A stretch of DNA of 4,487 bases, from the IMG/VR virus record IMGVR_UViG_2671180338_000011; one strand, written 5' to 3'. The position numbers and the translations under genes were made by a program. This DNA comes from a virus. Taxonomy: Duplodnaviria; Heunggongvirae; Uroviricota; Caudoviricetes. This document shows, piece after piece, positions 1,409-4,487 of this stretch. How positions within the stretch are numbered: position 1 is the stretch's first letter; each line of letters starts with the position of its first letter. The notes beneath the pieces were generated by a model that was given only the letters and a program-made list of their open reading frames with translations, did no database searches and had not been told where the DNA came from.

Positions 1409-1792
1409 TTAATTAGAGTTATTAACAACGATATCCATCTCTAACCGGATATCTAATGCCATTAACATCCCTTCAATTATGCCCTCAGCCTTCTGTAACC
1501 TTTTCCCGATATAACCATCAGAGCAGCAATGCTTACCTGCCAGTGACATGAATGTCATACCGACTACATAATAATCTACTAATAAATCGTGCAAATCGCT
1601 GTTGTTCTTTTTCAGACGGGCCATGCACCCGCAAATAATCATCGCGTCATCGTCACAACATTGCGGGCGAGATTTTACTTTTGAAGTAATTAATCCCTTA
1701 AAACCGGCGGCAATGGACGACCAGGTCACATCTTCATGATTATTAGCCGCCCACGCTCCCCAACGCTCAAGAACCATCTGAATATCACGCAT
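1409..1792 (-). CDS. quuD: Late-gene antitermination protein Q (DLP12 QuuD-like, 127 aa)
   Basis: ATG at 1792-1790 with GGAG 7 nt upstream on the minus strand. Cys-rich motifs ([20 protein letters not shown]) and size match the short Q proteins of DLP12-type prophages. The ORF-track start at 1807 is a TTG extension. Position directly downstream of rusA/ylcG is the canonical lambdoid layout. Confidence 0.8.
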
Positions 1793-1877
1793 CAACTTAC
1801 TCCACAAAAATCAGACCAGAACGCCAATTACAAGCAAAAATCAACAAAACAGTATTAGTTGATTGTTATCTCTGACT

Positions 1878-2018
1878 TCATACTCCTGCTCCTGTCAGGG
1901 TTTTGGCGTAATTCTTCAGTATTCGGTAATCGGTCAAAACAGAACCGGGGAAACGATATAAGCGCAGATGCCCCCAGCGGTGGCGAAGAAGTTCTGCCAT
2001 ATAAAACTCAAACATCAT
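1878..2018 (-). CDS. ylcG: Small nin-region protein YlcG-like (46 aa), not in the supplied ORF track
   Basis: Hand translation of the minus strand gives [46 protein letters not shown], ending in TGA at 1880-1878. Its ATG overlaps the rusA stop (ATGA). Size and position match DLP12 ylcG between rusA and Q. Confidence 0.6.
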
Positions 2019-2377
2019 TCATTCCCCATTTCGGTGATGGTCAGTTCCAGCCTCCCACCTTTGGTAACAGGCATCTTCACAACGCGGTAATCAACGACCT
2101 GAGCATCATCCAGCCAGAAACCTGCTTTGGTGAGTGCGTCAAAAGCGGCTTTTTGCAGATTATCCAGGTCACGGCGACGGCGATCCGGCATGTGGCACTC
2201 AATACGGATTTTCACTGGCATAGCCAGGCCGATATCCAGCATTGCGTTTTTAATGATTCGGGTGACGTTATCGCGGTATGCCTGCCCTTCTGCGCTGATG
2301 TGTGTGCGCCCGCGATTATGGCGGTAATAGCGGTTATTGCTCGGAGGCCAGGGTAATGTGATGCTGTAGGTATTCAC
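2015..2377 (-). CDS. rusA: Crossover junction endodeoxyribonuclease RusA (Holliday junction resolvase), 120 aa
   Basis: Translation [24 protein letters not shown]...[11 protein letters not shown] closely matches E. coli RusA as I recall it. The start codon read from the sequence is GTG (2377-2375), overlapping the ybcO TGA stop (GTGA). Confidence 0.9.
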
Positions 2378-2664
2378 GCCTTAATAACCCCCTCTTTCAG
2401 CCAGATAACCTGCGTTCTCGCCATACCTTCCAGCGCGCATTCTTTTGCATACTCAGCATCGACAAAATATGTGCGGCGGTCGATTTCGTCGTGACAGGCA
2501 GAACATGCAATGGTGGCAATCAGGTCTGGCGGTTTGATACCGGTACCGCACAATCCAGCCAGCCGGATATGTGCCAGTACTGACGTTTCAGGATTGCCAT
2601 TACATACGCCAGGGATTCTTACCTGGCATTCCCGACCACGCGCTGCTTTTCTCAAATCAGCCAT
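2374..2664 (-). CDS. ybcO: YbcO-like Cys-rich nin-region protein (DUF1364, putative nuclease), 96 aa
   Basis: ATG at 2664-2662 preceded by AGGAGG on the minus strand, giving [23 protein letters not shown]... The ORF-track start at 2703 is a TTG extension. Several Cys/His residues consistent with a zinc-binding fold. Family from memory. Confidence 0.85.
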
Positions 2665-2827
2665 GATTCCTCCTTGCTGCCAGTCGCAACCATTTTTTAT
2701 CAACCAGGCTAGCGGTATATCCGAGCAGTGTTGGTATTTCGGATGGCTTCAGCTCAGGCTTACGCTTACGACGATTTGATACTCTGTAGATGTGCCCGTT
2801 CATGACACGAATAAGCGGTGTAGCCAT
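2657..2827 (-). CDS. ninE: NinE-family small protein (56 aa), not in the supplied ORF track
   Basis: Hand translation of the minus strand from the ATG at 2827-2825 gives [56 protein letters not shown], stop TGA at 2659-2657. The basic C-terminal region resembles lambda NinE. Start overlaps the ybcN stop (TAATG); 3' end overlaps the ybcO start by 8 nt. Confidence 0.7.
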   Translation of the reverse strand: MATPLIRVMNGHIYRVSNRRKRKPELKPSEIPTLLGYTASLVDKKWLRLAARRNHG

Positions 2828-3282
2828 TACGCCTCCTGCTTATCGCGCAGCTGCTGGTATTCACAGCTCTGCGGAATTGTCAGGTGGCAGCCGATATTCA
2901 TCGCCCAGGCTTCGACTTTGCACAGGAAGATGTACATCTCGCCGGTTTCCAGCTCTGACGTATGGCGGAGGGATTGGACGGTGGTGACCTCGCCGGACAC
3001 GACATCTACACGGTCTTTGCTTTCGTAGCCGAGATAGGTGTGCTTCATCGCGTCTTTGACCCACTCAGGCGTAGCGAAGGTCTTGCCGCGGGCGATGAGA
3101 TATTCGCTGATCTCCGTGTACCACATGTGGCTGAGCGCGTTCTGCGACAGGCTGCGCTTCTCGCGCCACGGCTTAACCTGCAGGCGTAAGCATTGCCCGG
3201 CATCCAGCAATGGCTGAATCTGCTGGCCGATGGCCGCGAAGTTACCGCGATGGAGTTTGATGCCGTCTACTGGCAGAGTCAT
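2827..3282 (-). CDS. ybcN: NinB/Orf-family recombination protein (DLP12 YbcN-like), 151 aa
   Basis: ATG at 3282-3280 with GGGAGG 4 nt upstream on the minus strand. The RSLSQNALSHMWYTEIS segment resembles the RSLDQN...LW motif of lambda NinB. First gene of the nin cluster, as in DLP12. Confidence 0.85.
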   Translation of the reverse strand: MTLPVDGIKLHRGNFAAIGQQIQPLLDAGQCLRLQVKPWREKRSLSQNALSHMWYTEISEYLIARGKTFATPEWVKDAMKHTYLGYESKDRVDVVSGEVTTVQSLRHTSELETGEMYIFLCKVEAWAMNIGCHLTIPQSCEYQQLRDKQEA

Positions 3283-3393: not shown

Positions 3394-3502
3394 CAGAAGT
3401 CACCGGAGTTGTTCAGGCTCCGATGAGAGGATTATGGCGGATTGATTACGATAAATCAAAACTATCTTGAAGCCAAAACAGTGATCTTCGCTTTAAAAAC
3501 CT

Positions 3503-3510
3503 TGTATACT
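3503..3510 (+). promoter_or_regulatory. Candidate extended -10 element (TGTATACT) for the AT-rich cassette
   Basis: TATACT hexamer with TG immediately upstream, about 37 nt before the ATG at 3547. No convincing -35 hexamer at 17-bp spacing; AT-rich upstream sequence could act as an UP element. Inferred only. Confidence 0.3.
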
Positions 3511-3546
3511 TTCACCTAATCACAGCCAGAACTATGGATCTAACCA

Positions 3547-3924
3547 ATGACCAACAAAGAAAACAAAGATAAATATATTAACAAGTTCAAGAAAGAGCTT
3601 TCAAAATATATACAACCAACTGCTGGAGTGGACATTCAATTATTTAACTCTAAGGATGGTGGTGGTGTAATTAAAGCCACTTTGAATAGAAGTGGAAAAA
3701 GAAAATCATCTATTGCTGGTAATTTTACTAAATTAGGTGAGGCAATTACCTCGAGTGGGCAGAGGGTTTTTGGTGGTGATCTATCAAATGTGAATTTTTA
3801 CGGAACAAATACGATTTTTGATGGAGATACAATATTTTTAATTAAATCACCTGATTCAGAGGAGTGGTCATCACAAAAAGCTTCCAAAGACGTAGAGGGC
3901 ATCGTATTTGGAGGGAAAAAATGA
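3547..3924 (+). CDS. Hypothetical protein, 125 aa, Lys/Gly-rich, no signal peptide or TM segment, family not recognised; first gene of AT-rich cassette
   Basis: ORF with in-frame TAA two codons upstream of the ATG. Weak RBS (GGAT). About 30% GC by eye. Stop TGA overlaps the downstream ATG (ATGA). No conserved motif I can name. Confidence 0.6.
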   Translation: MTNKENKDKYINKFKKELSKYIQPTAGVDIQLFNSKDGGGVIKATLNRSGKRKSSIAGNFTKLGEAITSSGQRVFGGDLSNVNFYGTNTIFDGDTIFLIKSPDSEEWSSQKASKDVEGIVFGGKK

Positions 3925-4349
3925 TTAACATTACTACTAAGGATGGCACTCAAGTCAGTGGTGAAGTAAGAGATCTAGTAATTCTTCTTGAAACTGATGG
4001 AAAAACGGTGTCTGATTATTTGCAGCCAATCCCTCCCAAAAAAGATACACACTGGAGCATGATTTTCATTCCGGTAGCAATTTATATACTACTTAATCTT
4101 GTATACATTATTGCTCACCCATTATTTCCTGAAAAATATCTAAAAACATCAACATCTATATTTCTATTCATTTCCTTCATATTAAGTGCAATAGTAGCAT
4201 ATTTTGTTTTCCATAAGCATAAATCTGCCACTCTATCCATATGCAGCTTAGTGTTCTTAGTGTTAATTGTAGGTGCTAACGTAGGGTTTATCAGTTACAG
4301 CGACCTAACACAAAAAGCGACGCAAAAATTAGATAGTTTGTCTAAATAA
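3921..4349 (+). CDS. Hypothetical small membrane protein, 142 aa: about 44-aa N-terminal soluble region followed by three predicted transmembrane helices; family not recognised
   Basis: ATG at 3921 preceded by GGAGGG (3910-3915). Hydrophobic stretches WSMIFIPVAIYILLNLVYIIAHPLF, IFLFISFILSAIVAYFVF and LSICSLVFLVLIVGANVGFI separated by short Lys/His-containing loops. The ORF-track start at 3864 is a GTG extension overlapping the upstream gene in another frame. Confidence 0.65.
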   Translation: MINITTKDGTQVSGEVRDLVILLETDGKTVSDYLQPIPPKKDTHWSMIFIPVAIYILLNLVYIIAHPLFPEKYLKTSTSIFLFISFILSAIVAYFVFHKHKSATLSICSLVFLVLIVGANVGFISYSDLTQKATQKLDSLSK

Positions 4350-4356
4350 TTATGTT

Positions 4357-4377
4357 GCCATGCGAAGTATGCATGGC
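4357..4377 (+). other. Stem-loop (7-bp stem GCCATGC/GCATGGC, 7-nt loop) 8 nt after the cassette stop; possible transcript-end structure
   Basis: Read directly; no U-tract immediately downstream, so terminator function is uncertain. Confidence 0.3.
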
Positions 4378-4487
4378 TGCATGTCTGCCTTCCATTTAAA
4401 ATGGGCTAAGACCTATAACCCTAAATATTATTCTTTATTATCTTCTTTACCACTTCGGTGATGCTGCCAACTTACTGATTTAGTGTA

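Follow-up and report, generated by a model that had tools for sequence, protein, structure and literature searches.

What does a pair of small, AT-rich genes do in the early region of a lambdoid prophage, where it is read against the direction of the phage genes around it? Here, we addressed this question for a 4,487-nt stretch of DNA (hereafter, the window) from the IMG/VR virus record IMGVR_UViG_2671180338_000011 (Caudoviricetes), in which two genes of unrecognised family, denoted gene A and gene B, occupy positions 3547 to 4349. As judged from the distribution of homologues, the pair is not an enterobacterial orphan but an ancient module that is widespread beyond expectation, and comparison of the loci has shown that it is passed on horizontally among phyla, temperate phages and defence loci. 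As to function, our tentative answer, which we hold at a probability of roughly 0.4, is that the pair is a self-contained moron that would act as an anti-phage system composed of a sensor and a membrane effector. The pair is a well-defined candidate, not yet a discovery.

The gene pair and its distribution

The cassette proper consists of the following features:

3547-3924, + strand: gene A, 125 aa, soluble, basic (pI 9.5); WP_000182282.1; phrog_18061
3908-3913, + strand: Shine-Dalgarno sequence GGAGGG for gene B, within the 3' end of gene A, read from sequence
3921-4349, + strand: gene B, 142-aa membrane protein; WP_000608370.1; phrog_16940

The earlier note on this DNA had described two co-oriented genes, one for a 125-aa soluble protein and one for a 142-aa protein with three transmembrane (TM) segments, sharing an ATGA stop/start overlap and lower in GC content than the flanking backbone. 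The open reading frames (ORFs) and hydropathy profiles bear this description out: the TGA stop codon of gene A (3922-3924) overlaps the ATG of gene B (3921-3923), and the GC content of the pair is 0.339 compared with 0.501 for the backbone at 1409-3282, with values at third codon positions of 0.26 and 0.28 in the two genes and 0.76 in ybcN. Although the longest ORF of gene B opens at GTG 3864, we prefer ATG 3921, the RefSeq start, because it is preceded by GGAGGG and distant homologues begin there. Judging by this layout, genes A and B are translationally coupled. Both are also under purifying selection: in comparisons of enterobacterial alleles, either gene has a ratio of nonsynonymous to synonymous substitution rates (dN/dS) of 0.07-0.13, and dS is close to saturation. 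Given the low dN/dS and the existence of homologues in other phyla, genes A and B are real genes rather than chance ORFs.

The product of gene A is probably cytosolic because it has no hydrophobic segment, its 19-residue hydropathy peaking at 0.43. An exhaustive HMMER profile search (111 cluster representatives at E <= 1e-3) delineated a family of about 111 clusters at 50% identity, in which nearly all members are 120-135 aa long and the consensus contains the motifs YINNFRR, GA..EF, Q.AFGGNL, F.GTN, LIK, EW and DV. The predicted fold is alpha-beta-beta-alpha-beta-beta-alpha, a low-confidence AlphaFold2 model from a shallow alignment, with a predicted local distance difference test (pLDDT) score of 58.5. 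In one metagenomic protein of 447 aa (P0104), the gene A domain (residues 7-119) is joined to an HNH endonuclease domain (residues 191-231; Pfam HNH, 1.3e-12), an arrangement that fits gene A as a sensor or adaptor combinable with different effectors. The C-terminal region of P0104, about 200 aa, carries no annotation. In Escherichia coli CV839-06 (NZ_CP025753.1; locus L051, 2648-4227), IS1A lies within gene A and leaves a 49-codon stub, and gene B is unbroken with an identical protein sequence, so that the strain tolerates a natural gene A knock-out.

Gene B is built of a soluble N-terminal part of about 40 aa, three TM helices (hydrophobic segments at residues 47-65, 79-97 and 106-124) and a short amphipathic C-terminal tail. 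Among the enterobacterial relatives, the N-terminal 36 residues are the most conserved (29 of 36 invariant vs 33 of 106 elsewhere), which points to a constrained interaction surface. Charges are evenly spread, and the positive-inside rule gives no orientation for the N-terminal part. The predicted fold, again a low-confidence AlphaFold2 model from a shallow alignment (pLDDT 67.7), combines a small beta-beta-alpha unit with three long helices. Length variants of gene B exist: two near-identical metagenome loci (L105, 3198-4523, and L107, 3147-3536) differ in that one has a gene B of 129 aa and the other a version that reads on to 441 aa, which may be a genuine fusion at the C-terminus or else the outcome of a frameshift or of different assembly. 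In an Enterobacter-type allele with a 92% identical gene A (IMG/VR UViG 2619619144_000006; L044, 8375-8800), gene B, when read straight through, loses its frame after about 50 codons and is possibly a pseudogene or the result of a sequencing indel.

The earlier note recognised neither protein, and dedicated searches lead to the same verdict. Neither matches Pfam or NCBIfam, the Pfam rows for gene B being sub-threshold hydrophobic matches only; neither has a PADLOC match; and both are full-length members of PHROGs of unknown function. Furthermore, 71 members of the gene A family share no common Pfam family, and searches of the Protein Data Bank (PDB) sequences with profiles of both families returned matches at chance level only. 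Fold searches with the low-confidence models yielded generic matches only and were, for this reason, given no weight. In the literature covered, which does not include the Brenes & Laub 2025 screen of E. coli prophage defence systems, the accessions and PHROG identifiers are unmentioned, and work on the slot or on prophage defence contained nothing on the pair. Altogether, no family entry, defence-database model or publication was found for the pair.

Word-indexed searches retrieved only enterobacterial relatives, at identities of at least 63%. By contrast with this seemingly narrow range, a pattern scan of one genome per species identified 15 loci, 14 of them complete, in taxa that include Deltaproteobacteria, Acidobacteriota, Nitrospira, Neptuniibacter, Thiohalobacter, Myxococcales, Bacteroides, Flavobacterium and Mariniflexile. 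Each of the 14 complete loci has, directly after the gene A homologue, a gene for a B-like protein of 125-154 aa with three TM segments. A scan of metagenomes added 69 loci, of which 53 could be evaluated; the partner gene is present in 49 of these, three of the four exceptions are truncated, ending within about 380 bp of a contig end, and at least 28 metagenome pairs have the exact 4-nt overlap. The homology across distant loci is supported by hhalign for both proteins (A, probability 99.8%, E 4e-29; B, 95.8%, E 7.8e-9), and the phyla represented are Proteobacteria, Bacteroidota, Nitrospirota, Acidobacteriota and Myxococcota.

Within E. coli, the pair is found in 48 of 5426 complete genomes, including uropathogenic E. 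coli (UPEC) 536 and F11, always with both genes, in a single copy and on the chromosome. It is also carried by Klebsiella and Enterobacter prophages and by 18 prophage-derived contigs in IMG/VR. Both genes occur together in all seven enterobacterial prophage loci with differing replication and nin modules; in Enterobacteriaceae, the slot and orientation of the pair are constant, and the replication genes (O/P, DnaB-type or DnaC-type), nin genes and Q types vary. Thus, the question raised in the earlier note, whether the pair is conserved as a unit next to varying neighbours, can be answered in the affirmative for lambdoid prophages, for E. coli (48 of 48) and across phyla. Horizontal transfer is indicated by the B proteins of a Nitrospira metagenome-assembled genome and a Neptuniibacter genome, which are 89% identical despite the different phyla, and by the GC content of the pair, which is more than 0.02 below that of its flanks in 16 of 21 loci.

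This combination of features raises the possibility that the pair is a toxin-antitoxin (TA) addiction module in which B is a membrane toxin and A, the first to be translated from the coupled operon, its protein antitoxin, stabilising the prophage or island, maybe with no anti-phage role. Indeed, a soluble gene followed by a small membrane gene with a 4-nt overlap is the usual antitoxin-toxin layout, as in type V GhoS/GhoT and other membrane-toxin pairs, where the soluble gene lies upstream of the small membrane gene in one operon. The patchy distribution, the horizontal transfer, the GC content below that of the flanks and some neighbours of TA type (an Xre-MbcA antitoxin in locus L024 and AAA_21 'AbiEii' ATPases) are likewise as expected for such a module. 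However, neither gene occurs alone in the 48 E. coli genomes, and neither has homology to TA families in Pfam or NCBIfam, GhoS/GhoT included; gene B is much larger than GhoT-type peptides and, unlike these, contains a conserved soluble N-terminal domain. The viability of CV839-06, with IS1A in gene A and gene B unbroken, also argues against a toxic B, although weakly, because IS1A may also separate gene B from its promoter. On balance, we consider an addiction module quite unlikely.

Genomic neighbourhoods

Several of the distant loci place the pair in the midst of defence genes. In one (L009), it lies directly upstream of BrxA/BrxB; in another (L012), it is found between a Lon/AAA BrxL-like gene and a PDC-M14A-like gene with an SNF2 helicase; and in an uncultured Bacteroides sp., UMGS1534 (L019, 3969-9922), it is located between the Mod and Res genes of a type III restriction-modification (R-M) system, with an SNF2 helicase adjoining. 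In the latter locus, the genes all run in the same direction and are separated by short gaps, an uncommon case of one system nested within another. Elsewhere (L027/L028), the pair resides in a non-enterobacterial, unrelated temperate phage, between the integrase/replication and lysis genes. A broader scan took in 149 ORFs located no more than 3.5 kb from the pair, drawn from 40 non-redundant loci, as raw counts with no matched control. Among these neighbours, there is no recurrent third gene, and the 161 different Pfam families detected are defence-related only in a minority. Pfam families seen twice include AbiTii, AAA_15/AAA_21, ResIII, phage integrase, rve and ORF6N, and PADLOC models seen twice include AbiTii, HEC-01A/B, AriA/Old/GajA, PDC-S05 and PDC-M07A.

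The predominance of other neighbours brings to the fore the least unlikely of the alternatives, if still a doubtful one: that the pair is a housekeeping or stress-related membrane module, for instance, a small membrane protein with a cytosolic regulator or chaperone, that hitch-hikes in prophages. A large share of the distant loci indeed lie beside metabolic or informational genes, defence genes are a minority among the 161 Pfam families of the 149 neighbours, and there is no PADLOC match. Conversely, a housekeeping function would be hard to reconcile with the presence of the pair in only 48 of 5426 E. coli genomes, all chromosomal and, in the loci inspected, in prophage slots; with near-identical copies in different phyla and a GC content atypical of the host in most loci; and with the positions inside a type III R-M operon and beside bacteriophage exclusion (BREX) genes, which are marks of mobile conflict systems.

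The same neighbourhoods bear on another explanation, envelope superinfection exclusion, under which B, helped by A, would block DNA injection or a receptor from the inner membrane of the lysogen without killing the cell, as modelled on P22 SieA, T4 Imm and HK97 gp15. Exclusion would be in keeping with the location of the module in a prophage, where it lies on the opposite strand and is probably expressed during lysogeny, with the small size of B, an inner-membrane protein that lacks an enzymatic domain, and with the recurrence of the pair in a second, unrelated temperate phage. The known factors of this kind, however, act as single proteins, each adapted to certain components of the host membrane, whereas here the soluble partner is obligatory, being present in every complete locus, and the pair is kept in Bacteroidota, Nitrospirota, Acidobacteriota and Myxococcota, at non-prophage chromosomal sites and in BREX and R-M loci. 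Accordingly, a single factor of the SieA, Imm or HK97 gp15 type was rejected on account of the soluble partner and the many non-prophage loci, and exclusion by the pair appears unlikely.

Two related prophages carry other accessory genes that deserve mention. Beside the pair, in the same cargo region of the prophage of GCA_030132385.1 (L008, 5665-7348), there is a 377-aa ORF with a weak match to Pfam Colicin and a convergent 174-aa ORF with a weak match to Colicin_im, and a gene for a DndB-domain protein is located on the other side. A module for a pore-forming bacteriocin, carried by a lambdoid prophage, is one possible reading. In the related intact prophage of E. coli A7 (L001, 13485-15133), genes for an ImmA/IrrE metallopeptidase and a DUF4411 protein adjoin the cI-like repressor, forming another accessory pair in the immunity region.

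Prophage backbone, cargo slot and transcription

Read in reverse, the window corresponds to the early-right/nin portion of a cryptic lambdoid prophage of E. coli that resembles DLP12. Its backbone comprises:

138-1220, + strand: porin gene, ompC/nmpC-like, intact, 360 aa with signal peptide
1409-1792, - strand: quuD (Q)
between quuD and ybcN, - strand: ylcG, rusA, ybcO, ninE
2827-3282, - strand: ybcN
3400-3462, - strand: nin-side backbone boundary, homologous to a region of phage 82
4428-4456, - strand: remnant of P, last 9 codons and stop (RSGKEDNKE*; stop at 4428-4430), the right-hand backbone edge of the cargo slot
4457-4487, no strand: IS1 terminal inverted repeat (GGTGATGCTGCCAACTTACTGATTTAGTGTA), interrupting P

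The porin gene is unbroken in the window, whereas nmpC in DLP12 of K-12 is split by IS5. We take 4457-4487 to be an IS1 end; the repeat, which runs from 4457 to the end of the window, implies an interruption of P in this genome. Intact relatives read on into P at this point. With P cut to 9 codons and followed by IS1, the replication module is disrupted, as befits a cryptic DLP12-like element. The 31-nt IS1 end is also the likely reason why a wide query (3400-4487) matches 3773 records, with 1724 plasmid places, compared with 48 for the pair alone.

The pair is flanked by ybcN and the P remnant and runs counter to the Q-to-P backbone: the orientation against the early-right operon, noted earlier, is evident from the annotation, with the pair on the + strand and Q, ylcG, rusA, ybcO, ninE, ybcN and P all on the - strand. 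Homology to the phage 82 backbone stops at about 3462-3465, and backbone homology restarts at the P stop codon. Within 3400-3462, a 60-bp stretch is common to phage 82, HK639, CobraSix and lambda-like phages, and for the equivalent segment the phage 82 record lists putative -35 and -10 elements and an inverted 'possible regulator-binding site' upstream of orf33/orf151 (ylcH/ybcN). A consensus scan detected a promoter-like site here, TTGATT-17-CATAAT on the - strand (3459..3431), which together with the phage 82 annotation suggests a candidate internal promoter for the nin genes.

The earlier note had regarded this slot as a moron hotspot and named emrE, ybcL and ybcM as its contents in DLP12 of K-12, and was right on both counts: the K-12 slot, between renD and ybcN, holds emrE, ylcJ, ybcK, ybcL, ybcM and ylcH. 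The pair itself has the marks of a moron, that is, a position between backbone genes, a deviant composition and other cargo in the same slot of K-12. The K-12 cargo (emrE-ybcK-ybcL-ybcM) thus shares with the pair the slot between replication genes and ybcN/ninB, as well as the nin-side backbone of ybcN, ninE, ybcO, rusA, ylcG, quuD and the porin gene, but the gene content is entirely distinct and lies on the backbone strand, in contrast to the 0.8-kb coupled pair on the opposite strand.

The location in the prophage speaks to a further possibility, that the pair is a lysis-timing accessory in which B is a holin- or antiholin-like protein and A its regulator. With three TM segments and about 140 aa, B resembles class I holins. 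Nevertheless, the lysis genes of the prophage itself (essD-rrrD-rz) form a separate cassette downstream of Q, the pair is read from the other strand and does not belong to the late operon, and most of its relatives are found outside phages. No holin family of Pfam was matched, and assignment of B to the class I holins was rejected on this ground and on that of the separate essD-rrrD cassette. A role in lysis is, in our estimation, very improbable.

The sequences flanking the cassette contain candidate elements for its transcription:

3466-3546, + strand: AT-rich cassette leader with a weak GGA Shine-Dalgarno sequence, read from sequence
3481-3486, + strand: weak -35-like GTGATC
3505-3510, + strand: candidate -10 TATACT, aligning with TATAGT of diverged Klebsiella/Enterobacter alleles
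4352-4382, + strand: stable hairpin just past the gene B stop codon, core stem GCCATGC ... GCATGGC, no T-run after it
4403-4421, - strand: terminator-like hairpin and T-rich tail, immediately past the P stop codon

As to the earlier proposal that the pair has its own promoter, a -10-like hexamer is conserved in position, but the consensus scan detected no + strand sigma-70 site upstream of gene A, and an own promoter is thus plausible at most. At the other end, the RNA fold of 4347-4450 has a free energy of -23.2 kcal/mol (z = -3.06). The 4352-4382 hairpin was not scored as an intrinsic terminator in the scan; it may form the 3' end of the cassette transcript or stabilise this RNA. The 4403-4421 hairpin appears to be in the position of lambda tR2 and, if so, would protect the cassette from transcripts running into it in antisense whenever N is lacking. 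With its orientation against pR and with the tR2-like terminator, the cassette may be active in the lysogen and be turned off by antisense transcription at induction.

A putative sensor and membrane effector

The broader form of the reading that we favour, to which we give the same odds of about two in five, is that the E. coli pair belongs to a widespread, unnamed two-gene anti-phage system with a new sensor fold in A, a new three-TM effector in B and an HNH nuclease as the alternative effector. The mechanism that we infer rests on architecture and context, namely, a coupled soluble/membrane pair with no enzymatic domain, its mobility and one HNH fusion, and would best fit a process like that of RexAB, either abortive infection or exclusion at an early stage. 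In the repressed prophage, a weak promoter belonging to the cassette would drive its expression, counter to the pR operon. A would bind the N-terminal domain of the gene B product and thereby hold or control it. Upon infection by another phage, A would sense a phage product or a phage-induced change and let B oligomerise, such that the inner membrane would be permeabilised or depolarised and the infection either aborted or blocked at an early membrane step. When the prophage itself is induced, N-antiterminated transcription from pR would proceed antisense through the cassette and could switch it off.

In layout, the pair resembles RexAB of lambda, which, like the pair, is prophage-encoded, probably expressed in the lysogen and composed of a gene for a soluble protein followed by one for a small polytopic membrane protein (144 aa in RexB, 142 aa in gene B), with the proposed logic of a cytosolic sensor gating a membrane effector. 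However, gene A encodes 125 aa compared with 279 aa for RexA, RexB has four TM helices as opposed to the three predicted for gene B, and the pair is located in the P/nin cargo slot rather than in the immunity operon. Homology was tested and rejected for both proteins: hhalign comparison of the 71-sequence alignment of the gene A family with lambda RexA gave a probability of 0.04% (E 0.91), and that of partner alignment A5 with lambda RexB a probability of 0.2%. Small, non-enzymatic multi-TM proteins with a soluble partner are also found in CBASS (Cap14/Cap15), Pycsar (PycTM), retrons with 2TM effectors, Kiwa (KwaA) and 'Rst_Hydrolase-3Tm', systems that, like the pair, reside in defence islands and prophages. 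Nonetheless, none of the PADLOC 2.0 models of these systems matches A or B, and gene A lacks a nucleotide-cyclase, reverse-transcriptase or hydrolase domain.

Several observations weigh against an anti-phage function. The window proteins match no family of PADLOC-DB 2.0.0 at E <= 10, and two distant pairs match none at E <= 0.01. Many loci have housekeeping neighbours, such as valyl-tRNA synthetase, a fatty-acid synthesis operon and ligA, and given these loci and the lack of a control set, the association with defence is only suggestive. Only one sequence has the HNH fusion, which might be an artefact of assembly or gene calling. Expression is also in question: the consensus scan detected no sigma-70 site on the + strand upstream of gene A, and DNA of 34% GC may be silenced by H-NS. 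Finally, the pair occurs in none of 50,697 isolated phage genomes searched at the DNA level and with tblastn, where only the 60-bp backbone segment was matched, so that its activity in a living phage is undocumented.

If protective, the pair would represent a compact system of about 0.8 kb, made of two protein families that are annotated nowhere, and its small size and strict two-gene autonomy would recommend it as a model of how a membrane effector is gated by a minimal sensor in the cytosol. The P/ninB slot of lambdoid prophages would then become a place to seek further defence cargo. Even if not protective, the pair is a conserved, mobile two-gene family of unknown function that merits a family entry.

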